DNA from: Deferribacterales bacterium
GTDB taxonomy: Bacteria; Chrysiogenota; Deferribacteres; Deferribacterales; Geovibrionaceae
Direction of reading: 5' to 3'
Assembly: GCA_050253335.1 (NCBI GenBank)
Contig: JBFWJG010000004.1
Span: 1-64,000 of the forward strand
DNA: 64,000 bases
Positions 8,523-28,521 of this stretch are shown piece after piece. How positions within the stretch are numbered: the first letter of the stretch is position 1; every line of letters starts with the position of its first letter. Position numbers and translations under genes: made by a program. The notes beneath the pieces are model-generated. The model did no database searches, had not been told where the DNA came from, and saw only the letters and a program-made list of their open reading frames with translations.

Positions 8523-8966
8523 ATGCTTAAAAAACGTGATGAAATTTTTTTCTCTCCCTTCAGAAGCCTTCTGGATCTCAACAGGGAGATGGGCAGGTTT
8601 ATGGACAGGTTTGGTGACGGCGAGTCCATGCCCGGCGGGTTCAGACCTGACGTGGACATTGTGGAAAAGAACGGACAGGTTGTTGTTACGGCGGATCTCC
8701 CCGGAATGGAGGAGAAGGATATCGAAGTCACAATCAACGACGGAGTTCTCATCGTCAGGGGTGAAAGAACCGAAGAAAAAGAGGAAACCGAAAAAGGATT
8801 TCACAGGCGTGAAAGAGTTTTCGGCAAATTTGTCAGACAGTTCACCCTGCCCAAAGGCACGGATTCCGAGAATGTTAAAGCCGTGTTTAAAAAAGGCGTT
8901 CTCGAAGTGAGGATCCCTCTGAAAGCCGCTGCCGAGGAAAAGAAAATACAGATTGAAGCGAAGTAA
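8523..8966 (+). CDS. Hsp20/alpha-crystallin small heat shock protein
   Basis: PDVDI.E, ADLPG, ER.FG.F.R.F.LP, GVLEVRIP; ATG at 8523 after GGAGG. Confidence 0.95.
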   Translation: MLKKRDEIFFSPFRSLLDLNREMGRFMDRFGDGESMPGGFRPDVDIVEKNGQVVVTADLPGMEEKDIEVTINDGVLIVRGERTEEKEETEKGFHRRERVFGKFVRQFTLPKGTDSENVKAVFKKGVLEVRIPLKAAAEEKKIQIEAK

Positions 8967-8973
8967 AGAAAAT

Positions 8974-8998
8974 AAGCCCCCGAAGAAACGGGGGCTTT
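8974..8998 (+). terminator. Terminator after hsp20
   Basis: AAGCCCCCG-AAGAAA-CGGGGGCTTT. Confidence 0.7.
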
Positions 8999-9100
8999 CT
9001 GATTTCTGCTCAAATGCTTAAAAATCGGAGACTGTCGCGCCGGTTTGCCTAAACCTCTGTCATTGCGGACGAAGCGGTCAGTCTCCCTTATATCTTAATC

Positions 9101-11518: not shown

Positions 11519-11536
11519 TTTACCCTCTCCTGTATC

Positions 11537-11947
11537 TCAATTTTCTGTTTTTTTCAGCGTAACTGTGAGAACACCGTTCTTCAGTACAGCCTGTGTGTTA
11601 TCCTTATCCACGGGGAACGGAAGCTGCATTATCCTTTTAAAAGGCGCAAACTCCCTTTCAGCGCGGATGAAGAAGATTTGCTTATCCGTGCAGTATCTTT
11701 TTCTTATTCCTTCTATTATAAGAAGATTTTCGTAAAGATACACTGTAAAGTCATTAGACGTCAAACCGGGTAATTCGGCGGTAATGATCACTTCTGTGTC
11801 TCTGATCATAGCGTCCAGAGCGGGTGTTCCCGTTTCGGCTATGGGGCTTTTGGTACGCTCCATAACTTTAAGAAGCTCCTCCACTTCCTTTTTCATGAGG
11901 CCGTGGATAAAGCGTATCTTCGATATAGAGTCGTTTTCGCTGCTCAT
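11537..11947 (-). CDS. Hsp20 family protein (divergent), upstream of lon
   Basis: AELPG, ERE.APF.R...LP, LKNGVLTVTL. Confidence 0.85.
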   Translation of the reverse strand: MSSENDSISKIRFIHGLMKKEVEELLKVMERTKSPIAETGTPALDAMIRDTEVIITAELPGLTSNDFTVYLYENLLIIEGIRKRYCTDKQIFFIRAEREFAPFKRIMQLPFPVDKDNTQAVLKNGVLTVTLKKTEN

Positions 11948-11951
11948 TGTT

Positions 11952-12821
11952 TCACCTTGTTCTGCAAAGAACCGACATTAAGTCCATCATGGCGTCTTTC
12001 GTGTCTTCCCTTGAAAGGGCGAAGTGCACTGTGGCTTCGATCAGGCCGTGCTTGTTGCCGCAGTCAAACCTCTGCCCTTCGAAGCGGTAGCCGTAAACGC
12101 CGCTTTTTTCAGCAACAGCATGTATCGCGTCTGTGAGCTGGATTTCGTTTCCCGCTCCTGCCGCTGTGGTTTCCAGTTCGTCCATTATTTCAGGCGTCAG
12201 AATGTATCTGCCTATTATGGCAAGGTCGCTGGGCGGATCTGCTTTCGGTTTTTCCACCATATATCCGAGTTTATAGAGTCGTTCATCTATCTGCTTTTCA
12301 ACTTTTACTATCCCGTACTTGTGGGTATCCGCGAGGGGAACCTGCATTATGGAGATCACAGGCGCCTTCACTTTGTCAAACTCTTTTGTCATTTCGCCTA
12401 TTACCGACTTCTGAGCAAGTATTATATCATCCGGCAGGATCACGGCAAAAGGCTCACGCCCTACAATGTCCTTGGCGCAGAGGACAGCGTGCCCCAGACC
12501 TCTGGGCTCCTTCTGGCGGATATAAACCACATCGCACATATCGGAGATTTTACGCACCTCTTTCAGCAGATCCTCTTTGCCGGCCTCCGCAAGCGCGGTC
12601 TCAAGGTTAGGGTCACGGTCGAAGTGATCCTCCATGGACTTCTTTGTGCGCCCCGTGACGAAGATAATCCGTTCTATCCCGCCGTTCAGCGCTTCTTCCA
12701 CGCCGTACTGGATAAGAGGCTTGTCGATCAGAGTCACCATCTCCTTGGGGATAGCCTTTGTTGCCGGCAGGAGTCTTGTGCCGAAACCTGCCACGGGAAA
12801 AACAGCGCTTTTAACCTTCAT
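11952..12821 (-). CDS. galU: UTP-glucose-1-phosphate uridylyltransferase
   Basis: AGFGTRLLPATKAIPKEM, GLGHAV, VEKP, EIQLTDA. Confidence 0.97.
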   Translation of the reverse strand: MKVKSAVFPVAGFGTRLLPATKAIPKEMVTLIDKPLIQYGVEEALNGGIERIIFVTGRTKKSMEDHFDRDPNLETALAEAGKEDLLKEVRKISDMCDVVYIRQKEPRGLGHAVLCAKDIVGREPFAVILPDDIILAQKSVIGEMTKEFDKVKAPVISIMQVPLADTHKYGIVKVEKQIDERLYKLGYMVEKPKADPPSDLAIIGRYILTPEIMDELETTAAGAGNEIQLTDAIHAVAEKSGVYGYRFEGQRFDCGNKHGLIEATVHFALSREDTKDAMMDLMSVLCRTR

Positions 12822-15512: not shown

Positions 15513-16469
15513 TTATTTATCCCGCCTGTATTTAATTCCTTTTTCATACATTTCCTTCCAGACCCTCAGCCCGTCAACCTCCACGGGATCCTTTTCCTTT
15601 GCTATATGTTCATTTATGAGTGCGGCCGCTTTGTCAAACTCATCATTTTCAGCATAGGCCGCCGCCAGCCTTTCGGCATTTGTGTTATCCGGCCGGAGAG
15701 AGTATGCCCTTCGTCCGTAGAGCACTGCCTTTGCCCCGTCTCTGAAATACGGGTCAGGATGGGTGGAGAGGATCCACGCCGCCTGAGAAAAGGCCTTTTC
15801 CATGGAGCTGTCCAGGATTGCCGCTGTTTCGAGATCTTTGATGCCGTCTCCGGTTTTTGAAACAGCAAAAAGCACCTGCGCCCGCTGGAAATAGCTTCCG
15901 GCATTTTTGGGTTCAAGCTCTATGGCGCGGGTCACGTCCACTATGGCCTGTTCGGGGCTCCCCGCTTTCAGGTATGCCTTTGCCCTGCCGAGGTAGGCCT
16001 CCGCGCTTTCGCCCTGCGCCTCTATCCCTCTGTTCAGATAGAAGAACGCCTGTTTTGTGTTCCCCAGTTCGGCATATGCGAGGCCGATCAGGGTATTTGC
16101 GCGGGCATAGGTTCTGGGCTTCTGAGTCAGCGCCTCATCCAGTTCCATTACCGCGTCATTGTATTTTCCGAGTAAGAAAAGGATTTCCCCTCTTCTGTAG
16201 TGCAGGTAAGCGGTGTTTTTATTTCTGCCCAGTGCTCTTGTGTATTCATAAAAGGCCCTGTCGTATTCCTTCATTGCGAAATAGGCATCCCCGAGAAGGG
16301 TTCTGTTTTCGCCTGAGTCATGTTCCTGAACGGCTTTTTCAAGATATCCGGCCGCCAGCGGCGCGTTTCCCGATTCAAGGGCGCTCAGGCCGCTTTTCCG
16401 CAGTTCAACGGCGGCTTTGGGCGCGCACGCCGCAAGGGCTGCTGCTGTGATCAATATATAAAGTCTCAT
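15513..16469 (-). CDS. TPR-repeat lipoprotein
   Basis: Start MRLYILITAAALAAC (lipobox) after GGAG; multiple TPRs. Confidence 0.85.
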   Translation of the reverse strand: MRLYILITAAALAACAPKAAVELRKSGLSALESGNAPLAAGYLEKAVQEHDSGENRTLLGDAYFAMKEYDRAFYEYTRALGRNKNTAYLHYRRGEILFLLGKYNDAVMELDEALTQKPRTYARANTLIGLAYAELGNTKQAFFYLNRGIEAQGESAEAYLGRAKAYLKAGSPEQAIVDVTRAIELEPKNAGSYFQRAQVLFAVSKTGDGIKDLETAAILDSSMEKAFSQAAWILSTHPDPYFRDGAKAVLYGRRAYSLRPDNTNAERLAAAYAENDEFDKAAALINEHIAKEKDPVEVDGLRVWKEMYEKGIKYRRDK

Positions 16470-16631
16470 GATATCTCCATAGTCGGCTTCATTAATAATA
16501 TTACTCCCTGAACACAAATAACAGAAGTTTTTTATGAAAAGAGCCACAGTTATTTTTTGTAATTATTACACACTATAACAAGTTTTATTTGTTAAATGTT
16601 TATATTCCCTCATCGGCTAAGGAGGAATGTG

Positions 16632-17315
16632 ATGATTCTTGAAATGGCTAAAACAGGCAGATACGGCGAGGTAACGCTTACCGAGGCGGATCTGGAGCAG
16701 ATGGAGAAAAGCTTCGGCGGAAAAGTGCCCGTAACTGTGGGGCACGAGATAGCCGGAAATATGCCCGCTGCCGGATGGGTTAAAAACATCTGGGCGGAGA
16801 AGGGCGTTCTCATGGGCGAGGCGGAGCTGGGGGACTGGCTCACGGAAGCCTACGAAAAAGGGGAATACCGCAACTGGTCAATAGGCGCGAAGAGGGACGC
16901 GGACGGCAGGCTTTACCTGCACCACCTTGCGTTTCTGGGAGCTCTGCCGCCTAAGATACGCGGCCTTGAGGTTGTGGAGATGGGCGACAGCGGCGATTTC
17001 CTGACCTTTTCAGGATCCATACCCGCTTATTTCAGCGAGCTTGAAGCGCTCCGCAGGGAAAAGAGGGAGAAAAAACTCAGTGAACTCAGATCCGCATGCG
17101 AAGGGAAAATTCCCGCCGCCAAGCTGGAGCTTGTGATGGAGTTTGCTGAAAACCTTGAGGGTACGGTGAATTTCGCAGACGGAAACGAGGCGGACGCTGT
17201 GAGCGTGCTGAAGGATGTTTTTTCGTCCCTGCCGGAGCCTGTGAAGGCGGGAAAAATGAACCTGCCCGAAAGGAGCGTTTCGGCGGAGCAGAAGGGAATC
17301 TTCGGGAAAATTTAA
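16632..17315 (+). CDS. Mu-like prohead protease/scaffold (gpI-like)
   Basis: VPVTVGH, PAAGWV, EYRNWS, LHHLAFLGALPP; ATG at 16632 after AAGGAGG; precedes decoration and capsid genes. Confidence 0.8.
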   Translation: MILEMAKTGRYGEVTLTEADLEQMEKSFGGKVPVTVGHEIAGNMPAAGWVKNIWAEKGVLMGEAELGDWLTEAYEKGEYRNWSIGAKRDADGRLYLHHLAFLGALPPKIRGLEVVEMGDSGDFLTFSGSIPAYFSELEALRREKREKKLSELRSACEGKIPAAKLELVMEFAENLEGTVNFADGNEADAVSVLKDVFSSLPEPVKAGKMNLPERSVSAEQKGIFGKI

Positions 17316-17327
17316 GGAGGGGAGAAG

Positions 17328-17690
17328 ATGGCAAAGTATGACGGAGTAATCGACAGGCGCGACATGGGTTCCGCCGGAATAATCGACGGCCGCCACCCTG
17401 CGGTGGTGAAGGTAATGCCTTTTAAGGCGGACAACGGAAAAATCGAAGCGGGGGAAATAGTCGTCCTCAATGCAGACGGGAAGGCGGACTTTTATGACGC
17501 ACAGGACGGAGGCACGCTCTCCGTTCCGGTGGGTGTCAGCATCTTCACCGTTGATACGGCAAAAGACAGCCTCGGGAGTGTTCTTGTGCACGGAACGGTC
17601 ATCAGAAGCGCCCTGAAAAACGGCGGAGCCAAGGCTGAGTCTGCCGCTGTGAAGGCGTTGGAAACAAATACGCAGATCTGGGCGTTTTAA
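17328..17690 (+). CDS. Head decoration protein (lambda gpD-like)
   Basis: 120 aa between protease and capsid; G.I.AG.IV...PVGV...VLVHGTV pattern. Confidence 0.65.
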   Translation: MAKYDGVIDRRDMGSAGIIDGRHPAVVKVMPFKADNGKIEAGEIVVLNADGKADFYDAQDGGTLSVPVGVSIFTVDTAKDSLGSVLVHGTVIRSALKNGGAKAESAAVKALETNTQIWAF

Positions 17691-17703
17691 GGAGGTTTGA
17701 AAC

Positions 17704-18690
17704 ATGCTTCAGTTTGACATAAACAGCTTTTTTTCAAGGGATTCTCTCATAAGAACCCTCACGGACATGCCGGAGCTTAAATCTCCCGTGCTTGATTCGG
17801 TTTACAGAACGGAGAAGAGGAGGAACCACCCTCTTCCCACGGTTGCGGTGAGCGACCTCCAGCAGCCCATAACAAATATAGCCATCAGCAGAAGAGGCTC
17901 CGCGCCCACGCCCCTTTACGGCGACACAGGGCAGATAACCCACATAGAACCCCAGCCGTTCAGACCTTCGGAGAGGCTTAACGGCGTTGAGGTGAATAAC
18001 TTCAAGCTCCTTGACAGGACAGGGGTTCAGCTTCTCATCAATAACAAGATAGACAGACTCAGAAGAGTTGTGCGCGCCTCCACGGAGGCACTGGCGGCTC
18101 AGAGCCTCACAGGGAAAATAAGCTACCCGATGATTATGGACGGCGGCTACGGCACATACGAAGTGGACTTCGGCTCCACTCTTTCCTACTCGCCTTCGGT
18201 TCTCTGGGATGATTCTCAGGTTGCGATAGACGACATCCTCGAAACCCTCATCGAAATGGAAGCGGACATTCAGGAAACAAGCAGATACGGCGAAGGCGTT
18301 AAGTTCTGGGCAGGCAAAAAAGCGTTTATGGCGCTTTCCAAACTTGTTCAGGCTTTTGAGGGGAAAAGCGTGATCGCTTCCATGGATGAAAAATCGATCC
18401 TCGTAGGCGGCTACAGAATCGAACTGATGAACTCCGCCTACATCGACCCCGCAACGGGCAGCCCCGTTAAGGTGGTGGAGGATGGAAAGCTTCTCGCTGT
18501 TGCGGCGGACGCGCCCTTCGAACTCATTTACGCTGTGCTGGACGATCTGGACAGCAACCTTGTCTCCATGCCCTTTTTCGTGAAGCCCGTGGAGGACAAA
18601 CGCACATCCTCAATCGAGCTTGTGGCGGAGAGCAAACCCCTCCCCGTGCCTTACACAAGGGCGATCAACTGGGCAACGGTAACGGAATAG
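17704..18690 (+). CDS. Major capsid protein (Phage_cap_E-like, HK97 fold)
   Basis: 328 aa; RRG, TE.LAAQ.LTGKI.YP, VDFG, C-terminal ESKPLPVP; strong RBS. Confidence 0.85.
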   Translation: MLQFDINSFFSRDSLIRTLTDMPELKSPVLDSVYRTEKRRNHPLPTVAVSDLQQPITNIAISRRGSAPTPLYGDTGQITHIEPQPFRPSERLNGVEVNNFKLLDRTGVQLLINNKIDRLRRVVRASTEALAAQSLTGKISYPMIMDGGYGTYEVDFGSTLSYSPSVLWDDSQVAIDDILETLIEMEADIQETSRYGEGVKFWAGKKAFMALSKLVQAFEGKSVIASMDEKSILVGGYRIELMNSAYIDPATGSPVKVVEDGKLLAVAADAPFELIYAVLDDLDSNLVSMPFFVKPVEDKRTSSIELVAESKPLPVPYTRAINWATVTE

Positions 18691-18694
18691 CGCC

Positions 18695-19039
18695 ATGGAA
18701 CTTACGGTTGACGAACTGAAACAGCATATTCAGCCGGAGGACTTTGACGCTATAACAGGCGGGGATGACGCAGTGGCCGAAACCTTTCTGGAAAACGGAA
18801 GGGAAAGGGTTAAGGGGATAATCGCGGGCTACGGTGTGGATTTTGACGAATCCGACTCCGTGATACGCCTCGCCGTGGTGAAGGCCGCGCTGAGCGAGCT
18901 TTACTCGTATTCGGCGGACTGGGTGACGGCGGAGCATTACCGTGATGAGGCTGTTCTTGTGCTCAGGCCTCTTTCTCCCGCTGTTTATCCGGACGCGGCT
19001 TCGGTTAACGGGGCAGAAAGCTGGAAAGGTTTTGACTGA
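18695..19039 (+). CDS. Head-tail connector (Mu gp36/DUF1320-like)
   Basis: 114 aa helical protein directly after capsid; LTVDELK...ELYS...YRDEA pattern. Confidence 0.6.
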   Translation: MELTVDELKQHIQPEDFDAITGGDDAVAETFLENGRERVKGIIAGYGVDFDESDSVIRLAVVKAALSELYSYSADWVTAEHYRDEAVLVLRPLSPAVYPDAASVNGAESWKGFD

Positions 19040-19061
19040 TAAAGGAAAAGGTTGAGGAACT

Positions 19062-19442
19062 ATGGTTTATGAAACGGCACGGATGATAGCGGAGCTTCTG
19101 GAGGCTGAAGGAATATTCAGGCATGTGTTTGTTCACGGCGGGCCGCCCGATAAGGCGGCGGAGGAAATCCTGAGGGAACCGGGGGCCGTCGTGGTTTACA
19201 CGGGGGAGGAGGGGCAGCCTTCGGGAAGCGCGTTCAGGCGTGAACCGGTCTTCTCCGTGGTTCTGAAGACCTCCGCCCAGAGCAGGGGGGAGATTCCTGT
19301 GAAGACCGCTGGCGATGCCCTTGACGGGGTTTTCAGCGCTTTGCGGGGGCTCTCCCCTGCTTCATGGCGGGTTTCAGGCCTCTCCTCCGGCAGGGGAGGC
19401 AATTTCTACAGAATAGACCTCAGACTGAGACTAAAGGAATAA
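19062..19442 (+). CDS. Putative head completion/tail terminator (Mu gp37-like)
   Basis: Size and position; PGAVVVY.G motif. Confidence 0.45.
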   Translation: MVYETARMIAELLEAEGIFRHVFVHGGPPDKAAEEILREPGAVVVYTGEEGQPSGSAFRREPVFSVVLKTSAQSRGEIPVKTAGDALDGVFSALRGLSPASWRVSGLSSGRGGNFYRIDLRLRLKE

Positions 19443-19446
19443 GAAA

Positions 19447-20103
19447 ATGGCGATTGTTCTGAAAAATACCAATTTCGCGGTGAGCACTCTGGCATATGAG
19501 CTGGATCAGGCGGGTCAGCCCGCCCAGCTCACACTCACCGATTACACGGACTTTTCGCAGGCAGGCAGATTCAAAGTGGTGATTTGGGGCGGAGGTTTTG
19601 CTTCTCCTCTGGATGATCCTCAGCGGGAGATTGCTGAACTTGTTCCCGCGGGTATTCCCGGATTTGAGAACACATTTAACTGCTACGGCGGCAAAGAGGG
19701 GACGGAAAAGAGAAACTGGCCTGCGGGCAGCCGTATAGCTCATGTGATTACCGCAGGAAAACTGAACGAGCTTGAGGCTGAGATAGGGCTCAAGGCGGAT
19801 GCGGCGGATACTGAGCGCATCGGCACGGTGAGCGTTAAATCCGCCGACTGCTCAATGACCGGAGCGGAAAGAGCCGTGATGGTGAATGCCGGAGTATCTG
19901 ACATAAGAATAACCCTGCCCTCTCCGGCCGAAAATGCCGGACGTGTTTTTATAATAAAGCGCATTGACGCGGGCGTTGCGGCGGTGCGGGTGTCCGCCGG
20001 TTCGGGTGAGCTGATAGACACACAGAGTGCTGATATTCTGCTCTCCGCCCAGTGGGACAGGGTGCAGATAATCTCAGACGGCACAGACTGGTACACGGTT
20101 TAG
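19447..20103 (+). CDS. Tail fibre/baseplate-like structural protein
   Basis: N-terminal N.AVSTLA...EI...G.EGT...W.AG motif and C-terminal ITLP...G....IK...IDT...I.SDGTDW domain typical of phage fibre proteins. Confidence 0.55.
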   Translation: MAIVLKNTNFAVSTLAYELDQAGQPAQLTLTDYTDFSQAGRFKVVIWGGGFASPLDDPQREIAELVPAGIPGFENTFNCYGGKEGTEKRNWPAGSRIAHVITAGKLNELEAEIGLKADAADTERIGTVSVKSADCSMTGAERAVMVNAGVSDIRITLPSPAENAGRVFIIKRIDAGVAAVRVSAGSGELIDTQSADILLSAQWDRVQIISDGTDWYTV

Positions 20104-20112
20104 GGGGCGGGG

Positions 20113-20487
20113 ATGGTTTATCTGTGCGGCATACACCTTGAGGGGATGGTTTGGACAAATGAGTTTTCGGCGGGGCTTCCCGCCGCCGTTTCTGTTCCGT
20201 GCGCGGACGGAACATCGGCAGTATTCACTGAGACCGCAGGGAGCTTCGGCATAGATCTCGAATCCGCGGAGGATGACGGATGGCTCAGTCCGGCTGAGGC
20301 TCAGCAGCTCAAGGAAGCGGCATCAGACGCGGGCGCTGTTTATCTGTTTTCTCACAGAGGCAGGGAGTTCAGAGTCCGCTTCCGCCATGAGGACGCGCCC
20401 GCTCTGGAACTGAGGCCCGTCCGCCCCGCAGACGGCTGCGGGGAGAATGACTGCTTTTACGGAAAAATAAGGCTGAAAACAGTTTAG
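20113..20487 (+). CDS. Putative distal-tail (Dit-like) protein
   Basis: W.NEF...I.L....GWL...F.V.FRH.D.PA.E.RP...I.L.TV pattern resembling tail-tip genes of Mu-like siphophages. Confidence 0.5.
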   Translation: MVYLCGIHLEGMVWTNEFSAGLPAAVSVPCADGTSAVFTETAGSFGIDLESAEDDGWLSPAEAQQLKEAASDAGAVYLFSHRGREFRVRFRHEDAPALELRPVRPADGCGENDCFYGKIRLKTV

Positions 20488-20495
20488 GGGGAAAT

Positions 20496-21455
20496 ATGCA
20501 GACCGGAGACATAAAGTTCTACCGCTCAAAAACCGTCACGGACACGGCGGAAAACGGCGGGCATATGGATATATCAAGGGAGATTGTGAGCGGGGTGAAG
20601 TTTAATCTTTTTCCAAGAGTGACCGCCTTTGAGCGCACGAACGGAAAAACACGCCTGCGCAAGGCCTACATCGCCAACAGGGCGGCAGGGGCGGAACCCG
20701 CTTTTGACGCGGCTGTGGCGCTCACAGTGCCCAGCACCGGAGGGGACAGGTTTTACATAAAGACAGCCCAGAACCATGCGGAGACCGAAGGGGAGCTCAC
20801 CGCAGAAGGCTGGACAGGCGGCGGAAGGCTGTATGCGGACATCACAGCGGGGGATGCTTCCGTTCAGGTACTTTTCGAGCACAGCGACTACGCGGTGCCC
20901 GCGGGCGCGCTTCTCATGGTCAAGGCGGATTCGGGAAATATGTTCACCGCAAGGATTACAGGGGCTGACTGGACAGGGAATGTGGCTCTGATAGGGCTTG
21001 CCTCTCAGGCTCCGGATAACTTTGCCGCATCGGAAACCCACGCGGGAATATGCGTTGAGCTTGGGAATCTGGAAGCAAAGGCGGAGAACATAAGCGCAGT
21101 TTCAGCAGGCGGAACCTTCGCCTCCGAGGGGATATCGGTGTCCAACTGCGGCGCGGCTGAGGATGAATGGACTATAACCTTTGTTTCATCATCGGCGTTT
21201 AATGTGGCTGGAGCACAGGCAGGGAGTCTGCCTTCCGGAAGCATAACGGCAAATTATCAGCCTATGAACGCGGCTTCGGGCGATTTTTATTTTTCAATAG
21301 CTCACCAGAGCTGGGGCGGTTCGTGGCAGGCGGGGGACAGGCTCACCTTCAGCACCCGCGCCTCGGCGAAGGGTTTCTGGCTGAAAGAGATTGTGCCCGC
21401 CGGAACGGAACGTGAGGCGGATAACTTCATCCGCCTTGACTGGATAACGGACTAG
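20496..21455 (+). CDS. Phage tail-tip/baseplate protein
   Basis: DIKFY.S....DT..NGG.M...NLFP.V...ER..G..R.RK N-terminus resembling prophage tail proteins. Confidence 0.6.
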   Translation: MQTGDIKFYRSKTVTDTAENGGHMDISREIVSGVKFNLFPRVTAFERTNGKTRLRKAYIANRAAGAEPAFDAAVALTVPSTGGDRFYIKTAQNHAETEGELTAEGWTGGGRLYADITAGDASVQVLFEHSDYAVPAGALLMVKADSGNMFTARITGADWTGNVALIGLASQAPDNFAASETHAGICVELGNLEAKAENISAVSAGGTFASEGISVSNCGAAEDEWTITFVSSSAFNVAGAQAGSLPSGSITANYQPMNAASGDFYFSIAHQSWGGSWQAGDRLTFSTRASAKGFWLKEIVPAGTEREADNFIRLDWITD

Positions 21456-21458
21456 TCC

Positions 21459-23129
21459 ATGTACAGGACTGCGGGAGCCTTTGTTCCCGGAACAGACGGC
21501 TTTTCATCATCCGGCCTGAGCTTAAACGGTGCGCTTTATCTGCGGTTTCCCACAGGATGCGGGTCATCGTCAGAGCTGAAAGGGGCTTTGTCCTCCGGCG
21601 GTTTGTCCGAGCTGGCACAGCCTGCCGGACTGGACGATTGCTGTTATGTAACAAGTTCATACAGCGCAGAGCTGAAAGGCGGGATCATCTTTTCCGGCGC
21701 AGTGACTGACGCTGCTGAGGGAAACCTGAAAGCAGAAAGCGCTGTTTCACTGGGAGGCTCTCTGGAAGCTTGTTTGAGTATTTCCGGCGGGCTTTCTGGA
21801 CAGATTAAAGGCGCAAACACGATAGGCGACTCTGCCCTTTGCGGCATGGTGTCCCTGAGGGGTGAGATCTCCTTAAACTCCCTTTGCGGTTCGCTTTTTC
21901 TCAAATCATCAGTAGATGATGACATCGGCATAATTCAGTGTTCGTTCCGCTTTCTGCTGAACGGAAAGGATCTTACAGGCAAACTCGTAAGTGCCGTGAT
22001 CGGTTTTTACGGCAAAGACCCTTTCGCATCTTTCAGCGCCGTTGTCACGGAACCTGCGGAAAAGGGATCAGGAGCGGAATTTGTCATAGAGGGCTCTTCA
22101 TACTTTTTTGTGATCGAAAAAATAAAGAGAGCCGGACACACGTTGAAAATCAGCGGGCGCGCCGCCAAGGTTATGGATGAACCGCCCTATGGGGGCAGGA
22201 GATCGGTTTTCATGGCTGATACATCCGCATCTGCTCTGGCAGGGAGCGCTGTCTGGAGTGTGCCGGATTTCTCTGTTCCTCTGGTAAGGGGCAGTTTCTC
22301 AGAATCCGAGCTTCTGCGGGCGCTTGCTGATGAATGCGGAGCATCGGTGCGCATAGGCGCGGACGGACTTACCCGCGTTGTCAATCCGTATTCGGCGGAA
22401 AACAGCCTTAGTCCCGGCACATTTTTTGAGGCGGTGAGAACCTGCGAACAGCCGAAATACGGCGGAATCAGGGTGGTGTCGGGCTTATCTGCTGATCCTG
22501 TGATAGAGCCTGATGCGAAGAAGACAGCCCGCGGGAATTTCGTCACCGTATCGGTTTATGCCAACGGGGATGTGAAGATAAGTACCGATGCCGCCTTTTT
22601 TAAGCCGGACGGGCTGAGGGTTATCGAAAAGGAAGAGAAGATCCGTTTTTCAGACGGTGCGGGCAAGGCTTCCTATCCTGTTCTCAGGCTCCTGAGCGGA
22701 GCGGACGCGGCGGAAGGGCGCAGTGTTTATGTGCGTGAGGGGGGCAGTTTCGTCAGGAATGTCAGGTATGAAACCATCCGGCGTGACTGCCTGCTTTACG
22801 AAGAGGTAGAAAAAGATGCGGTTCTGCGTGCCGAAGCGGTGAAAACCGTTTTTTGCGCAGGTTCCGGCACGGCGGTAAAGGAGTTCCGGCAGAAGCTGAC
22901 AGGTGATCCGCTTGCTGCGGCAGCAAGGGCGCAGAATCTTAAACGCGGTCTCTGCGGCGGGGTTTATCTGGAAGTTGCACACCTTTTCAGTCCGGAGGCG
23001 GCTTCGGGGGATGCGCTTCTGATGCGTACATCCGCAGGCGAAGGGTACTGTGTTTCCTCATCAGTTGAGATAACATCCGCCCCGCTGAAAATAATCCAGA
23101 AAACAAAGCTTTACCTGAGGGAGGAATAA
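21459..23129 (+). CDS. Phage tail hub-like structural protein
   Basis: 556 aa; Gly/Ser-rich repetitive N-terminus, hub-like middle (L..LADECGA.V....DG...V); position in tail module. Confidence 0.45.
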   Translation: MYRTAGAFVPGTDGFSSSGLSLNGALYLRFPTGCGSSSELKGALSSGGLSELAQPAGLDDCCYVTSSYSAELKGGIIFSGAVTDAAEGNLKAESAVSLGGSLEACLSISGGLSGQIKGANTIGDSALCGMVSLRGEISLNSLCGSLFLKSSVDDDIGIIQCSFRFLLNGKDLTGKLVSAVIGFYGKDPFASFSAVVTEPAEKGSGAEFVIEGSSYFFVIEKIKRAGHTLKISGRAAKVMDEPPYGGRRSVFMADTSASALAGSAVWSVPDFSVPLVRGSFSESELLRALADECGASVRIGADGLTRVVNPYSAENSLSPGTFFEAVRTCEQPKYGGIRVVSGLSADPVIEPDAKKTARGNFVTVSVYANGDVKISTDAAFFKPDGLRVIEKEEKIRFSDGAGKASYPVLRLLSGADAAEGRSVYVREGGSFVRNVRYETIRRDCLLYEEVEKDAVLRAEAVKTVFCAGSGTAVKEFRQKLTGDPLAAAARAQNLKRGLCGGVYLEVAHLFSPEAASGDALLMRTSAGEGYCVSSSVEITSAPLKIIQKTKLYLREE

Positions 23130-23633
23130 ATGGCTGAGGTAACAGTTAGTTTTGTAACGCCCGCAAAAAGCGGGGAGAAGACGGTAATAGAGCTGGATGA
23201 AGATATGAATCTCGATTCCTCAGGCAGTGCGAAGAAATTTTTCCGCTACGGCGAAACGGCATATTTCAGGGCTTACGCCCCTTTGCCCGCTTCCCTGAGG
23301 GCTGTCTCATCCGACGGAAGCATCACTGAACACGGACTGGGCACTGCGACAATAAGCGGCGAGTTCATTCCCTTCACCGAATCAGCCGAGGCAGGGGCGA
23401 AATATCCCGTAAGGGAAATTGTCTCCTCCGTGTGGCTTGGGAGATCCCTCGGCAATGTAAAGAAAAGCGGCGCTTACTCTGTTTCATGCGAAATTGAGCC
23501 GGATGCCGCAGGTGAAAGCGGAGTGGGGCTTCTTGAACTTACATATTCATCAGGCTTTAAAAGGTTCGGCATAACACTGCCGAAGAAAAGCAGGCCTGAG
23601 TGCCCCGTGCTTATTTACGTTTTTCAGGAATAG
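23130..23633 (+). CDS. Phage structural protein, unknown
   Basis: Abuts upstream ORF; shares motif with the next ORF. Confidence 0.5.
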   Translation: MAEVTVSFVTPAKSGEKTVIELDEDMNLDSSGSAKKFFRYGETAYFRAYAPLPASLRAVSSDGSITEHGLGTATISGEFIPFTESAEAGAKYPVREIVSSVWLGRSLGNVKKSGAYSVSCEIEPDAAGESGVGLLELTYSSGFKRFGITLPKKSRPECPVLIYVFQE

Positions 23634-23636
23634 CTT

Positions 23637-24353
23637 ATGGGCTCATTCATTGTCGGCTTCGGCGCGGAAAAGAAGGAAGGGGAGCTCCTCCTGACAGAAG
23701 ATCACGAACGGAGCGGAAACAAAAGCCTCTACTCAGCCGGAGAAAAGTCATATGTGCGTATATATCCCGCCGGACTGAATGCGGAGATAACTGTCTCAGG
23801 CGGTTCGTGGAGATATTCGGCATACGGTCTCAGCGAAATGCACACGGAGCATATCCCTTTTGCGGATCAGACCGAAGGCAGGCTGAAATATCCTGTGGTG
23901 CGGGTGCTGAATGTTTCCCGCGCGGCGGACGGCTCCTCCCCCTTTGTGGGCGGGCGTTCAGTGAGGTTCAGAGAAAACAGGCTGGATTCTGTTTCCGTTG
24001 AATATGAAACGTCCTATGATCTCATCGAAATCACAGGGTTTTCCGCACGGTACGTGATCCTGAAAGTCTCCTGCGCCGCTGGAACTGCTTACCTTGAGCT
24101 GGACTACACTGGGGAAGAGACTGATCTCTCCTCCCGCATGGTGATACTCACGGCGAGGGATGCGGCTTCAAGGGAGATCATCCCCCATGCGCAGGTTTTC
24201 ATGAACGGTACTTTCAGGGGCGTGACAGACGGCGGAGGAATGCTGAATCTGGGCAGGCTGAAGAAGGGGCAGTACAGCCTCCTTGTGCGCAAGGACGGCT
24301 ATCTGGACACTGATAAGGACAACCTCAAAAATGACAGTTTCAGGATCGAATAA
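23637..24353 (+). CDS. Phage structural protein with C-terminal PEGA/carboxypeptidase-regulatory-like domain
   Basis: A.VFMNG...G.TD..G...LG.L..G.Y.L.VRKDGY. Confidence 0.55.
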   Translation: MGSFIVGFGAEKKEGELLLTEDHERSGNKSLYSAGEKSYVRIYPAGLNAEITVSGGSWRYSAYGLSEMHTEHIPFADQTEGRLKYPVVRVLNVSRAADGSSPFVGGRSVRFRENRLDSVSVEYETSYDLIEITGFSARYVILKVSCAAGTAYLELDYTGEETDLSSRMVILTARDAASREIIPHAQVFMNGTFRGVTDGGGMLNLGRLKKGQYSLLVRKDGYLDTDKDNLKNDSFRIE

Positions 24354-25228
24354 TGGAACTGAACCTATATCTCAGCAGAGAAAACTGGCGGCCGGAGGGG
24401 CTCTGCACCGTAAAAGGGCGGAGCGCGGGGATTGAGTTTGACGATACGGACGGGATTCCGGGGCTGGTTTTGCCTCTGTTTATGGATGTGTACATGGATC
24501 AGGACGGCACAGCCCATGCGGACGCGATGACTGTTCTCCTCTCTGACGGAACGGAGAGCGAGGAGTTTCTCCTGCATAATCCGCCATGCGCCAAGTCGCC
24601 CCTGCGCAAGGGGGCACTGAGCTATTCCGCGGAGGATGGGGAGCTTGTTTTCAGCTTTCCCCGACTGGCGTTCAGCGGGTTCGGCGGTTATGTGATACGG
24701 ACGGGCGGCGGCTCTGTCAGCTATCTTACCCCGGGGAGAATAGGGGAGATAATCCGTACTGTGCCGGAGTATACGGGCTCAAGCCCCGAAAATTTCAGAC
24801 TGATGTTCAGCGATACGTCAGTTGCTCCGGGGGAAACCGTGTCGGTGATGTTCACCCTTGCCGGAAGTGCTGAGGAGTTCATGTACCGTTCGTCCGTTTT
24901 TGAAACATCAGTGTGGACATCGGCAGTGATTGCCGGATGCGGTCTTTACCGTGACGGAGCCTTTTATGAAGGCGGGGAAGGAGCAGAGTTTGAGCCGGAA
25001 AGGTTTGCCCATTCTGATTTCCGCTGGGCTGTGGAGTTCAGGGGACAGGCTTATGCCCTGAAAGCGGCGGACTTCACCCGCTTCTTAATCGGCGAGCGGG
25101 CGGCAGTTGTTAAAAACGGACTGGACGGAAATGCGCTGACCACGGGCAAGGCTTCTCAGGCTTCCGCAAGGGATACCCTTGATGAGGATGACATCATAGT
25201 TCCGTTCAAATTTTACGGAGGGGCGTGA
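24353..25228 (+). CDS. Phage structural protein, unknown
   Basis: TAATG overlap with upstream ORF; inside tail module. Confidence 0.5.
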   Translation: MELNLYLSRENWRPEGLCTVKGRSAGIEFDDTDGIPGLVLPLFMDVYMDQDGTAHADAMTVLLSDGTESEEFLLHNPPCAKSPLRKGALSYSAEDGELVFSFPRLAFSGFGGYVIRTGGGSVSYLTPGRIGEIIRTVPEYTGSSPENFRLMFSDTSVAPGETVSVMFTLAGSAEEFMYRSSVFETSVWTSAVIAGCGLYRDGAFYEGGEGAEFEPERFAHSDFRWAVEFRGQAYALKAADFTRFLIGERAAVVKNGLDGNALTTGKASQASARDTLDEDDIIVPFKFYGGA

Positions 25229-26241
25229 TGGAAAAATATCCTCTGCGGAACATAGGTGAGGCTGTCACAGGCACAGAGTTCAGGAAAGGGGTGATCCTCT
25301 CCGTTAATGCGGAGGCGGATAAGGCTGATGTGGATGCGGACTCGGCAGTTTATCAGGGCGTGCCTCTGTTTTACCGATGCAAGGGGGACGAGGAGGCGCA
25401 TCCGGACGGCTCGGTTAAGGGCGCCGGCGGGGTGTTCACAGCCGGAGATGAGGTCATAGTCTGCTTTATCGGCGGTGTGCCTCTGGTTGTGGGCTTCGCA
25501 GGCGGGGCAAGACCCTGTTTCACATACAGGGCGGCGTATCACGCTGATGGCGGATGGTACATAGCGGGTGACGGGGAGATAGTTCCCGATGAATTTGTCA
25601 CGGAGGCTGAGTTTGAAGAGCGCTACATAATAGCTGAACCGCTCCCCGACAGCGGCGGCTACGGAATCGAATCCGAAAAAATTCAGCAGGATGCGTGTCT
25701 GAGCATAACCTCGCACAAATTCAGCCTGAACGGCGGGCTAATTTCGGAGGAGAGCGAATATTACGATTTCTGCGTGTTGGACACGTGGGGAGGCTGGTTC
25801 ACTCTTTTCAGCCAGTCCGCATACGCCGGATTCAGCGCTTGTTTTTATGAACATACCGCTCAGGCAGTCATAGACGGGGACAGATGGACAGTGGAGCGCT
25901 CATACCGTTTCGGTTTCGGTTCGGAATATGACGAAACCGCCCGTTTGCGGGAGGACTGGTTTGTTTATCCGCTATACAGCGGGGAGAAGATACGCTCATT
26001 CGGCGGATTTTACGGCGGGAGGAACAGCGGCGGCGAATTTCTGCTGGCTTCATGCGTAACCGGAACAGAGACGGAGGACAGCGGATTTGCGGTGTATCTC
26101 TTCAACAGGGAGGGTTTGAAAAAGCACATCTTCCCTTGTTCGGCGGGGAATGCGGATCTGGGCTTGGGTTTTTCGGCGGCGGAAGCGGTTCTGATTAAAG
26201 TAAAAAACGGGGGAGGAAATAATGATATGGAAGAATCTTAA
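25225..26241 (+). CDS. Putative tail spike-like protein (N-terminal OB-fold-like)
   Basis: G.I.SV......A.V...VP.FY.C...F..GDEV.V.F....P.VVGF resembles gp5/gpV OB-fold N-termini. Confidence 0.45.
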   Translation: MMEKYPLRNIGEAVTGTEFRKGVILSVNAEADKADVDADSAVYQGVPLFYRCKGDEEAHPDGSVKGAGGVFTAGDEVIVCFIGGVPLVVGFAGGARPCFTYRAAYHADGGWYIAGDGEIVPDEFVTEAEFEERYIIAEPLPDSGGYGIESEKIQQDACLSITSHKFSLNGGLISEESEYYDFCVLDTWGGWFTLFSQSAYAGFSACFYEHTAQAVIDGDRWTVERSYRFGFGSEYDETARLREDWFVYPLYSGEKIRSFGGFYGGRNSGGEFLLASCVTGTETEDSGFAVYLFNREGLKKHIFPCSAGNADLGLGFSAAEAVLIKVKNGGGNNDMEES

Positions 26242-26650
26242 ATATTTTACCGAGAAGGAGAAATGGGGAAATGCAGAGAAGATGAACCCTGCGCTGCTCC
26301 TGCTCCTTGACAGGCTCAGAGAAAAGGTGGGCAGGCCTTTTGTAATCCATTGCGGCTATGAGGAAGGGGGGCACGCCTCCGGCAGCAGACACTACAGAGG
26401 GGATGCCGTGGATTTTCATATCGAAGGGATGAGGTTTCCGGAGGCCGCGGACAGCCTTCTCAGAGCACTGCACGAGACTGAACTTCTGGGGCAGGTAAGC
26501 GCCGCTTATGTGGGTCTCGGAATTTATCCCGACTGGAACACGCCGGGCTTTCATCTGGATATAAGGGGCTATTCCGCCCGCTGGGGAAGAATAGGCGGGG
26601 AATATGTGAGTTTTGAAAAAGCGTATAAGCACGCAGGAGGGGTGAAATGA
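26222..26650 (+). CDS. Peptidase M15 family endolysin
   Basis: LD.LRE..G.P..I..GY, SRHYRGDAVD (SxHxxGxAxD), FHLD. Confidence 0.8.
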   Translation: MIWKNLKYFTEKEKWGNAEKMNPALLLLLDRLREKVGRPFVIHCGYEEGGHASGSRHYRGDAVDFHIEGMRFPEAADSLLRALHETELLGQVSAAYVGLGIYPDWNTPGFHLDIRGYSARWGRIGGEYVSFEKAYKHAGGVK

Positions 26651-26856
26651 TTTCTATACTGGTTAAGATGTTCTCGGGCGCGATGCTCGGTGTGGCGAAG
26701 GCTTTTCTTACGGAAAAAATAATTACTCTGGTTGTGGTGGAGGTGCTCAAAGAGCTCGCCGCTTCAACAAAAACGACCATAGACGACCGCATAGTGAGTG
26801 AGGTTGCCGCTTCTCTTGGAATGGTGGATCTCTCCGAAATCAAAAAGAAGCTTTAA
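26647..26856 (+). CDS. Putative holin
   Basis: 69 aa, hydrophobic N-half, T.T.IDD motif, basic C-terminus, ATGA overlap with endolysin. Confidence 0.5.
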   Translation: MISILVKMFSGAMLGVAKAFLTEKIITLVVVEVLKELAASTKTTIDDRIVSEVAASLGMVDLSEIKKKL

Positions 26857-26868
26857 GCGGGGGACAGC

Positions 26869-28050
26869 ATGGGAAAGAGAAGAACATCGGCTGAGATACT
26901 GAACAGCGTTTTTGAATCGGCTGACCAAAGCCTTAAAGCAAAATACAAAACAGAGGACGAAGTGCTGAACCTTGTTTTTGACCGGCAGTCCGGCAGGCTT
27001 AAAGTCGATCTGGAAGGGGGCGGTGGAAGCAAGCCTTACTCCAATCCCCTTGAAACATACGCCTCAACAGATCCTGCGGGGGTATTGGGCGGCGGACTGC
27101 TGTTCGGGAATCTGAGCGGCTCCAAGAAATGGATTGGCGGAGCTCTGGCGCAGAACGGGAAGGTTTACTGCGCGCCTAATGATGCCTCCCAGATACTTGA
27201 AATAGACCCTGTGACCCGTGAAACATCTCTCTTCGGCTCATTCAGCGGTTCCAATAAATGGATTGGCGGCGCTCTTGCGCCAAATGGAAAGATATACTGC
27301 GCGCCTTATAATTCGCCTCAGGTTCTGGAGATTGACCCCGTGGCAAAGACGGGAACTCTCTTCGGAGCCCTGAGCGGTTCGTCCAAGTGGTACGGAGCCG
27401 TGCTTGCTCCCAACGGGAAAATATACTGTGCGCCTTATAATTCGACTCAGGTTCTGGAAATTGATCCGGCGACACAGGGCACAAGGCTTTTCGGCAGTAT
27501 AAACGGAGCAAGCAAATATGTCGGCGGTGTCCTCGCCCCTGACGGGAAGATATATTTTATCCCGCTTTCAGCAGGGCAGATTATGGTTCTTGACCCGACG
27601 GCAGACTCGGTGGAGTTCTTCGGCACACTGCCTGATGATGTGCTGTATAAATGGGCATCAGGCGCTCTTGCGCCAAACGGAAAGATATACTGCGCGCCGT
27701 ATCAGGAAACACGGGTGCTTGAGATAGACCCTCTGACTCGTGAGACTGTTCTCTTCGGAGAACTGAGTGCAGGGAGCGGGAAGTGGAGCGGCGGTGCTCT
27801 CGCGCCGGACGGCAGAATATATTTTGCTCCGCTTAATTCCTCTCAGATTCTCTCTGTTGACCCTTCGTCAAGGGAAGCGAGCTTGTTCGGGAATGTCGGC
27901 GGTTCGGTGAATATGTTTGCGGGTGCGGTTGTTTCCCCGTCCGGCGGGGTAATTTTTGTTCCGAATTCATCGGCAAAGGTGCTTGAGATTCGTCAGGGCG
28001 CTCACGGCAGTCAGTGGTGGGCGCTGAACGCATACACCAATAAGTTTTAA
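26869..28050 (+). CDS. Seven-repeat beta-propeller protein (putative receptor-binding fibre)
   Basis: Seven ~43-aa repeats LFG..SGS.KW.GG.LAPNGKIYCAP.N..QVLEIDP after a short helical N-terminus and GGGGS linker. Confidence 0.75.
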   Translation: MGKRRTSAEILNSVFESADQSLKAKYKTEDEVLNLVFDRQSGRLKVDLEGGGGSKPYSNPLETYASTDPAGVLGGGLLFGNLSGSKKWIGGALAQNGKVYCAPNDASQILEIDPVTRETSLFGSFSGSNKWIGGALAPNGKIYCAPYNSPQVLEIDPVAKTGTLFGALSGSSKWYGAVLAPNGKIYCAPYNSTQVLEIDPATQGTRLFGSINGASKYVGGVLAPDGKIYFIPLSAGQIMVLDPTADSVEFFGTLPDDVLYKWASGALAPNGKIYCAPYQETRVLEIDPLTRETVLFGELSAGSGKWSGGALAPDGRIYFAPLNSSQILSVDPSSREASLFGNVGGSVNMFAGAVVSPSGGVIFVPNSSAKVLEIRQGAHGSQWWALNAYTNKF

Positions 28051-28058
28051 AGGGGCGG

Positions 28059-28337
28059 ATGATGGAAGTTTTTGAAAAATGGCTTGAGAACCTTGCGGCC
28101 TCAATGACGGATGAAGAGATAAACGGGGCAATTGCGGCGCATCTGACGGCATATGACGATGACGGGAATATAGTTTATGAGCCTTCGGCAGAGGATATTG
28201 AGGCAGTGCGGTTTGAGCATTATGCCGCGCTCCGCAGGGGTTCATACGGCTCATGGCAGGAACAGCTTGATAAACAGTATGCCGGAACATGGGAAAGCCA
28301 CGTGGCGGCAGTGAAGGCGAGGTTCGGGAAAATGTAA
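28059..28337 (+). CDS. Small phage protein, tail-fibre-associated type
   Basis: C-terminal RR..Y.SW.EQLD.QY..TW..HV.AVK.RF.K resembles small proteins encoded after phage fibres. Confidence 0.55.
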   Translation: MMEVFEKWLENLAASMTDEEINGAIAAHLTAYDDDGNIVYEPSAEDIEAVRFEHYAALRRGSYGSWQEQLDKQYAGTWESHVAAVKARFGKM

Positions 28338-28396: not shown

Positions 28397-28433
28397 AAAA
28401 AAGGCCTCTGATAAAAAATCAGAGGCCTTTTTT
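28397..28433. terminator. Bidirectional intrinsic terminator between phage-like operon and tRNA
   Basis: AAAAAA-GGCCTCTGAT-AAAAA-ATCAGAGGCC-TTTTTT. Confidence 0.9.
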
Positions 28434-28436
28434 AAG

Positions 28437-28521
28437 TGCCGGGGGGGGGACTCGAACCCCCACAGGATTAACTCCCACAGGATCCTTAGTCCTGCGTGTC
28501 TACCAATTCCACCACCTCGGC
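28437..28521 (-). tRNA. tRNA-Leu, anticodon AAG
   Basis: Cloverleaf GCCGAGG-TG-GTGGAATTGGTAGACAC-G-CAGGA-CTAAGGA-TCCTG-long variable arm-GGGGG-TTCGAGT-CCCCC-CCCCGGC-A; CCA not encoded. Confidence 0.93.

Follow-up and report, generated by a model that had tools for sequence, protein, structure and literature searches.

We analysed a window of 64,000 nucleotides (positions 1 to 64,000 of contig JBFWJG010000004.1, hereafter C4) and, within it, a cluster of phage-derived genes at positions 16632–28337. The cluster is probably the head–tail–lysis locus of a domesticated, vertically inherited and co-regulated DNA-packaging particle that is encoded at several loci and resembles a gene transfer agent (GTA). 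The parts of the system are this head–tail locus, a packaging operon on another contig of the same genome (C15), a gene for a family-specific XRE-type regulator, located close to one of these loci, and, in two genera, a locus with lysozyme and holin-like genes. The 17 open reading frames (ORFs) of the cluster are numbered g01–g17, and the four genera of the bacterial family are denoted g1–g4, g1 being the genus of the window.

All 17 ORFs lie on the plus strand, with distances between neighbours ranging from -20 to +22 nt in the ORF listing. Pfam at E ≤ 0.01 left 12 of the 17 proteins without a match and PHROG at E ≤ 0.001 left six; in neither database did any of the 17 match a terminase, portal, integrase, transposase, repressor, tube, sheath or tape measure family. 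The first-pass annotation had described a particle operon devoid of packaging genes and had proposed a search for orphan terminase and portal genes elsewhere. Packaging genes are indeed absent from this locus, but they are present in the genome: when the whole genome was searched with the portal of Mu-like relatives, a single match came up, on contig C15, in a minus-strand operon composed of TerS (12224–12631), TerL (10840–12264; phrog_38, 1e-125; PF03237 and PF17289) and a Mu-type portal (9715–10830; PF06074 over the full profile, 2.9e-88). No other terminase or portal turned up in the genome with the queries used. In the three other g1 genomes TerL and the capsid gene share a strand, TerL lying about 30 kb 5' of the capsid gene; the corresponding distances here (10.8 kb on C15, 17.7 kb within the window) sum to 28.5 kb, which suggests that C15 in reversed orientation abuts the start of C4.

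The distribution of the system was surveyed in 68 genomes of the phylum, namely the window's own genome, 15 other genomes of the family and 52 genomes from outside it; the set includes complete, high-quality assemblies. The capsid protein is present in all 15 other family genomes, with identity of 94–97% within the genus, 73% in g3 and 62–67% in g2 and g4, and in one of the 52 outside genomes (40% identity). TerL is found in the same 15 genomes, with three weak matches among the 52. The TerS–TerL–portal trio also occurs in 15/15, and so does the head–tail locus next to the same TPR-repeat gene, its gene order being the same except that g06 has moved and become longer in g2 and g4. Maximum-likelihood trees of the capsid protein, TerL, the portal and the tail-tip protein g08 all show the main split (g1+g3)|(g2+g4) of the host protease Lon. 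The sub-groups that Lon defines inside g4 reappear in the trees of TerL and g08; in those of the capsid protein and the portal, g4 forms two unresolved groups.

The ratios of nonsynonymous to synonymous divergence (dN/dS), estimated by the Nei–Gojobori method against three congeners (all 17 cluster genes against two of them and 14 against the third), are 0.026–0.26 for the cluster genes, 0.04–0.07 for TerS, TerL and portal (TerL, 0.04–0.06) and 0.015–0.14 for the host flanks. Thus the synteny, the vertical inheritance and the purifying selection proposed as checks on a host-maintained particle are all observed, the dN/dS values (from 0.03 to 0.26) are far from the value near 1 that had been named as a refuting result, and none of the relatives carries a full prophage at this site. 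That the cluster is a functionless prophage remnant persisting by chance is hardly credible on these data: local damage occurs in three of the 15 genomes, as such a remnant would have it, but apart from that the genes have kept their reading frames and their order in four genera, although Lon is no more than 73–81% identical to that of the window, their dN/dS values are low, and promoter boxes, described below, are kept at three loci.

One pairwise comparison stands out. Synonymous divergence (dS) to genome G027 is 0.22–0.61 in the head–tail cluster (16632–26856), compared with 0.50–1.12 in the host flanks and 1.2–2.4 in the packaging locus; for the fibre gene it is 1.48. The lower values in the cluster hint at a recent recombinational exchange of it between the two species.

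A promoter-like box, TAACAA-N19-TATATT (16576–16606, plus strand), is located 26 nt 5' of the g01 start codon. The pattern has two matches in the genome, one before g01 and one before TerS on C15, a count that is weak on its own as the pattern was derived from those two sites; it also occurs at both loci in three out of three other g1 genomes. In g2 and g4 the box takes the form TTAAACATAT-N17-TAnnAT, then CC. Over five whole g2/g4 genomes the pattern TTAAACATAT-N17-TAnnAT yields nine matches, against zero for the reversed control, and eight of the nine precede the same two loci. The ninth lies at a remote site of a complete g2 genome, about 100 nt 5' of a phage lysozyme gene (PF00959, 7.6e-12).

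This lysozyme is encoded in all 11 genomes of g2 and g4 and is absent from the other five (g1 and g3) save for one distant match with 39% identity; its distribution is therefore the complement of that of the M15-family endolysin g14, which is found within the cluster in g1 and g3 only. The box is present at 11/11 lysozyme genes. Moreover, the ORF following the lysozyme gene in a g2 genome is homologous to the holin-like g15 of the cluster (33% identity over 57 aa, E 2e-12), so the lysis cassette retains its holin-like partner while the type and the location of the endolysin differ. Taken together, the boxes suggest that the packaging, head–tail and, in g2 and g4, lysis loci are under common control.

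The leaders of the lysozyme genes have a feature of their own. Ten out of 11 (L069–L079) contain a long inverted repeat between the box and the start codon, of the form ATGAAGA, GC-rich hairpin, TCTTCAT, which looks like a conserved 5' leader structure; the eleventh gene (G036) has a much shorter leader without the inverted repeat.

The XRE-type regulator has two helix-turn-helix (HTH) domains and an S24-like domain, and its first HTH domain is almost invariant between genera. At E ≤ 1e-20 it was found in 15/15 other family genomes and in none of the 52 outside genomes, and its gene is never more than about 10 kb away from one of the loci; on C15, three XRE-type regulator genes adjoin the packaging genes.

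The packaging genes also bear on what the head contains. If the particle were a DNA-free capsid or a protein-delivery particle, with the head acting as a compartment or carrier and the packaging genes vestigial, the failure to find a tube and a tape measure would be readily understood. We regard this as very unlikely, since the ATPase (Walker A, Walker B) and nuclease motifs of TerL are invariant in 16/16 sequences, with the low dN/dS given above, an alignment of 15 portal sequences has 128 invariant columns, and the packaging operon and the head genes share the same promoter, which points to filling of the head with DNA. The first-pass annotation had offered such a capsid, a tail-tip bacteriocin and a split-locus GTA as alternatives. 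The first is disfavoured by the invariant catalytic motifs of the terminase, and the second by the conservation of head and packaging genes; the third gains support from the orphan packaging genes, synteny, co-divergence and dN/dS.

GTAs are defined, in the parts of PMC9953437 that concern us here, by vertical inheritance, location in several loci, lack of self-propagation and release by lysis. Their defining functional traits are the carriage of more or less random host DNA, in pieces smaller than a genome, and its transfer to recipient cells; for the present system both would be predicted. In the family studied, phage-derived head, tail and packaging genes are chromosomal; they are inherited vertically, judging by their presence in 15/15 genomes, their synteny and a tree split identical to that of Lon; the cluster genes as well as TerS, TerL and portal evolve under purifying selection; and the several loci share a promoter box. 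Genes for replication, integration or excision, and an att repeat, were not found in or beside the loci. A tailocin, which consists of a tail only, does not agree with capsid, portal and terminase genes that are conserved and under selection, nor does a phage satellite of the phage-inducible chromosomal island (PICI) or capsid-forming PICI type agree with the lack of an integrase and an att repeat and the fixed position in 15/15 genomes. An intact or recently decayed prophage is at odds with the host genes (Lon, Hsp20 and others) that separate the loci, with the presence of the system throughout the family and with the low dN/dS.

A GTA-like particle of this kind would operate as follows. In response to some signal, the common promoter would fire in some of the cells. 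The protease with its scaffold, the capsid protein and the decoration protein would assemble a Mu-type head on the portal, and the headful-type terminase would pack this head with DNA, which would be host DNA as there is no phage genome present. A very short tail would then dock on the neck; it would consist of neck proteins, fibres and a tail tip of the siphovirus type, neither a tube nor a tape measure being recognisable. The endolysin and the holin-like protein would release the particles, and the variable fibre would bind related cells, leading to DNA delivery.

The head genes occupy the 5' part of the cluster. g01 (16632–17315, 227 aa) encodes a Mu gpI-type prohead protease (phrog_976, 5.7e-24, residues 15–139) with a short scaffold-like C-terminal tail and dN/dS of 0.055–0.091; its ORF opens at 16596, and the start preceded by a ribosome-binding site is at 16632. 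g02 (17328–17690, 120 aa), a head decoration protein (phrog_49, 1.3e-7; PF02924 at 0.0044, a weak match under the curated cut-off), is present in 15/15 genomes. g03 (17704–18690, 328 aa) is the major capsid protein of family E with the HK97 fold (PF03864, 7.7e-48; dN/dS 0.026–0.042) and the sole capsid match of its kind in the genome. It has no match among 50,697 phage records, and its nearest relatives on viral contigs (37% identity) belong to Mu-like head modules comprising TerL, a Mu-type portal, an F-type minor head protein, Gam, the protease, the decoration protein and the capsid protein. The origin of the head from Mu-like phages, as assumed earlier, is well borne out by these relatives and by the Portal_Mu match (2.9e-88) on C15.

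Two further genes are assigned by their position only. g04 (18695–19039, 114 aa), a putative head–tail adaptor, has no Pfam, PHROG or PDB-sequence match, and its comparison with the Mu-like adaptor of the viral relatives was not significant (hhalign E 0.047); it is kept in 15/15 genomes. g05 (19062–19442, 126 aa), a putative neck protein, has no family match and no significant hhalign score against the Mu-like neck proteins of the viral relatives, and its alignment extends to the other genera at 19–31% identity.

The tail genes start with g06 (19447–20103, 218 aa), a fibre or baseplate-attached protein, whose N-terminus matches phrog_6427 and phrog_8469, both annotated as "tail fiber protein". 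In g2 and g4 it is about 400 aa long and relocated 3' of g08; its neighbours in the ESM Atlas are viral hypothetical clusters, some of them with Phage_phiTE_241_C (31%) or T4_gp9_10_N (11%) domains. g07 (20113–20487, 124 aa) is a small tail-tip protein (phrog_4408, 2e-16), and g08 (20496–21455, 319 aa), the most conserved tail gene, encodes a tail-tip protein with a Dit-type beta-barrel domain according to its AlphaFold2 model (predicted local distance difference test score, pLDDT, 80). Foldseek gave only partial-domain matches for this model; VIA-align sharpened them to a beta-barrel domain shared with tail proteins, with no function assigned, residues 72–188 resembling the N-part of K1 lyase (Z 11.6), the phage Chi tail tip (Z 10.2), the JBD30 baseplate (Z 9.3) and T5 Dit pb9 (Z 8.7). 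In the ESM Atlas g08 has viral hypothetical clusters only.

g09 (21459–23129) is the tail hub, having the gp27 / Mu gp44 / VgrG fold in residues 161–556, as seen from the AlphaFold2 model and Foldseek. The pLDDT is about 85 over this part and below 30 over the G/S-rich N-terminal extension (residues 1–160). The 43 PDB matches at E ≤ 1e-3 are headed by baseplate hubs, namely phage 7-7-1 (1.8e-11), Milano, Mu gp44, the pyocin R2 hub, VgrG, T4 gp27 and the 80alpha tail tip. In Vibrio siphophages of about 80 kb, the tape-measure gene is directly followed by homologs of g07 and g08, side by side and in the same order. A podovirus-type tail was considered and rejected, since a hub with the gp27 fold is typical of phages with long tails and the counterparts of g07 and g08 in siphophages come after the tape measure.

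The tail-tip protein g10 (23130–23633, 167 aa; phrog_24905) is a paralog of the N-terminal part of g11: phrog_24905 matches g10 in seven out of seven genomes scanned and the N-terminus of g11 in five out of six relatives, though not the g11 of the window, so that the paralogy follows from a shared family to which, of the window's two copies, g10 alone is assigned. g11 itself (23637–24353, 238 aa) is a tail-tip protein with a C-terminal CarboxypepD_reg-like beta-sandwich (PF13620, 1e-3 to 2e-7 in the window and in five out of six relatives, all under the curated cut-off). g12 (24353–25228, 291 aa) and g13 (25225–26241, 338 aa) are conserved, putative structural proteins with no recognised fold. 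g12, with no family or PDB-sequence match, is present in 15/15 genomes, in one of them as two ORFs; g13, with no significant match in Pfam, PHROG or PDB-sequence searches, has an ortholog or a positional equivalent in the relatives. PDB sequence-profile searches with g04, g05, g08, g09, g10, g12 and g13 yielded nothing better than E 0.02.

In the clusters of seven genomes, Pfam and PHROG assign none of the ORFs to a tube, sheath or tape measure family, and a non-exhaustive screen of the window's genome for six families (PF10145, PF06791, PF06199, PF04630, PF04984, phrog_807) gave no match. Together with the fold of the hub, these searches uphold the earlier description of a tail tip without tube and tape measure. 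The sole tube-like gene found among the 16 clusters belongs to the only g3 genome, which has an extra gene of 232 aa between g05 and g06 (L020:12618–13316, minus strand) matching phrog_807, "major tail protein with Ig-like domain", over its full length (1.7e-19). Its position fits a tube gene, and it may be ancestral and lost elsewhere.

At the 3' end of the cluster, g14 (26222–26650) encodes the M15-family peptidoglycan peptidase serving as the endolysin (phrog_894, 1.6e-10; PF08291, 1.8e-4, slightly under the cut-off) and g15 (26647–26856, 69 aa) a holin-like protein with one hydrophobic segment in its hydropathy profile. They are followed by g16 (26869–28050), a tail fibre with C-terminal DUF6923 repeats (PF21959, 2.5e-10). 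Between genera only the N-terminal 30–56 residues of g16 are conserved, while the C-termini elsewhere carry Beta_helix, Laminin_G_3 or Ig_Rha78A domains, with matches to tail-fibre families in PHROG; since a conserved N-terminus with swapping of C-terminal domains is seen in receptor-binding fibres, we assign g16 to these. It is the fastest-evolving gene of the cluster (59–60% identity within the genus, dN 0.32–0.33). At positions 27098–27890 of g16, a unit of 129 nt (43 aa) occurs five to six times in tandem, in diverged copies that correspond to the DUF6923 repeats. The last gene, g17 (28059–28337, 92 aa; phrog_9114, 3.1e-7, function unknown), shows 84–85% identity within the genus and is possibly a fibre assembly factor.

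The properties of the tail make it necessary to consider a killer particle of the PBSX type, that is, a domesticated machine kept for killing competing strains upon adsorption, with incidental packaging of DNA. The rapid evolution of the fibre and the exchange of its C-terminus between genera suit strain-specific killing, a tail that has neither tube nor tape measure may bind and puncture a cell with no delivery of DNA, and an XRE-type regulator is linked to the system, as in PBSX. However, fibre diversification is equally compatible with a transfer agent, Pfam searches of the tail genes revealed neither toxin-like nor pore-forming domains, and although killing requires no terminase, strong purifying selection acts on TerS, TerL and portal and the catalytic motifs are invariant. 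On balance, we consider such a particle unlikely, though less so than any of the other alternatives to a GTA-like particle.

Several observations weigh against the GTA-like interpretation. The tail has no recognisable tube or tape measure, and delivery of DNA may fail for this reason, although g04, g05 or one of g10–g13 could be a divergent protein with the tube fold. In g1 the main loci are only about 30 kb apart, so the capacity of the capsid bears on the notion that the particle cannot package its own genes. As to regulation, two of the eight matches to the box in the three congeners lie elsewhere in the genome, and the reversed control gives seven matches; furthermore, the box patterns were recognised in these very sequences before being used for the scans. 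Control by the SOS response through the XRE-type regulator as an SOS-cleavable repressor is unsupported, its S24-like domain being without the catalytic serine motif. Finally, erosion is seen in three of the 15 genomes: one has an in-frame TGA in TerL, one has an insertion sequence (IS) between g11 and g12 and lacks the fibre gene, and one has a split g12 and no g06. The IS encodes a DDE-transposase (L021:11605–13005, in a complete g2 genome) and is accompanied by a g11 cut to 200 aa; the particle system is probably broken in this strain.

The genome also contains two Mu-type elements, on contigs C1 (about 83.1–93.8 kb) and C9 (about 46–52.5 kb; from the ORF listing), with MuA proteins 75% identical to each other and with MuB, Gam and Mor-like genes. 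A capsid, portal or terminase gene of their own was not found in these mini-Mu elements with the queries used, and as the only Mu-type head genes of the genome belong to the domesticated system, the elements may ride in its capsids. One could go further and see in the system a resident helper whose main cargo today is these capsid-less elements, a view to which the protease of the C1 element, of the same family as g01 and 29% identical to it, lends some colour. Such MuA is found, however, in only one of the 16 family genomes, that of the window, with two distant matches in genomes that have extra capsid matches; satellites of this kind cannot therefore explain conservation in 15/15 genomes, and we hold this view to be quite improbable. 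A composite proposal, namely an independent GTA, the first in Deferribacterota, with a tube-less tail tip set straight on a Mu-type neck and small capsids that also carry mini-Mu satellites, is speculative and, taken as a whole, rather doubtful.

The remaining genes of the packaging operon on C15 are less clearly connected with the particle. The gene 3' of the portal in g1 and g3 (minus strand on C15) encodes a secreted protein of 108 aa, p4. We considered it as a part of the system and set this aside: in g2 its homolog directly follows an ftsY-like gene (L046:13330–13856), so that p4 may belong to the host and have been drawn into the packaging operon. The operon is closed by a gene for a PilZ-domain protein (8897–9337, minus strand; PF07238, 9.6e-14) in g1 and g3 only, and an input of cyclic di-GMP to particle production is conceivable.

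The boundaries of the cluster were read from the ORFs and the junctions, which confirmed the outline given in the first-pass annotation, i.e., 17 co-oriented and tightly packed ORFs, head genes with strong ribosome-binding sites, an AT-rich spacer shared with a TPR gene on the left and a terminator on the right. Ribosome-binding sites of the TAAGGAGG type precede the head genes g01, g02 and g03. The left junction is an AT-rich spacer of 84 nt between the cluster and a divergent gene (15513–16547, minus strand) for a TPR-repeat protein with an N-terminal hydrophobic segment, assigned by Pfam TPR families. This gene is adjoining and divergent in 15/15 other family genomes (29–88% identity; dN/dS 0.06–0.09) and may be either a host gene or a part of the system. 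Beyond it lie host genes encoding a radical-SAM enzyme, a Memo-like protein, a nucleotidyltransferase, Hsp20 and Lon. An assembly break at the left junction, raised earlier as a concern, is argued against by the identical arrangement of the TPR/protease junction in the same 15 genomes, which indicates that the junctions are not assembly artefacts; the window sequence contains no N. To the right, a terminator composed of a GC hairpin and a T-run (28403–28432), read from the sequence, separates g17 from a transfer RNA gene, tRNA-Leu(aag) (28436–28521, minus strand, identified by ARAGORN), which was absent from the earlier annotation; a chemoreceptor gene and then the ftsZ/ftsA cell-division cluster follow. 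We found no att-like direct repeat joining the two junctions, including a repeat of tRNA-Leu at the left one.

Among the closest known systems are GTAs of the RcGTA type in Alphaproteobacteria (Rhodobacter capsulatus), likewise a phage-derived head, tail and packaging machine inherited vertically across a clade, with genes at several loci, lysis genes apart from the structural cluster and no integrase or replication genes (details partly taken from the abstracts of PMC5026251 and PMC7296036). The present system differs in its independent origin and its Mu-type head (Portal_Mu, gpI-type protease, family E capsid and decoration proteins), in having the terminase and portal, which in RcGTA belong to the main cluster, in a separate operon, and in its XRE-type regulator and distinct promoter box. 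RcGTA has a tube and a tape measure, neither of which is recognisable here; besides, DNA transfer has been demonstrated for RcGTA, whereas for the system described here it is a prediction.

PBSX of Bacillus is a domesticated particle kept by a species group, with DNA packaging and a linked XRE-type regulator, and its genes, including those for sheath, tube and tape measure, form a single uninterrupted region of myovirus type. Our system, in contrast, occupies several loci, has no sheath, tube or tape measure that could be found, and is conserved throughout a family comprising four genera. Mu-like phages share with it the PF06074 portal, the phrog_976 protease, the capsid relatives in Mu-like modules and a hub with the Mu gp44 fold; they differ in that the loci studied here are without transposase, Gam, Mor and F-type minor head protein genes, that TerL belongs to phrog_38 and not, as in the Mu-like relatives, to phrog_2, and that g07 and g08 resemble the tail tips of Vibrio siphophages. 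In the latter (vB_VpS_PG28, MT735630; about 80 kb), the adjacent and identically ordered homologs of g07 and g08 are preceded by a major tail protein gene, two genes in chaperone position and a 4.1-kb tape-measure gene, all absent from the cluster.

Full-text searches of the literature on GTAs and phages in Deferribacterota returned nothing that, judged by titles and abstracts, concerns such a particle. A GTA-like logic that arose independently and is combined with packaging genes in an operon of their own and a tail apparently devoid of a tube is probably new.

To our knowledge, only a handful of independently domesticated GTAs have been recognised, and most of what is known about them comes from one alphaproteobacterial lineage. 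If our interpretation is true, the particle of this family would be a further independent case, in a phylum without a described one, and of a different ancestry that combines a Mu-type head with a siphovirus-type tail tip. Its layout would differ as well, the packaging, head–tail, lysis and regulator genes being set apart and forming a regulon defined by a conserved promoter box. Such a system would offer a natural comparison for establishing which features of GTAs are convergent.

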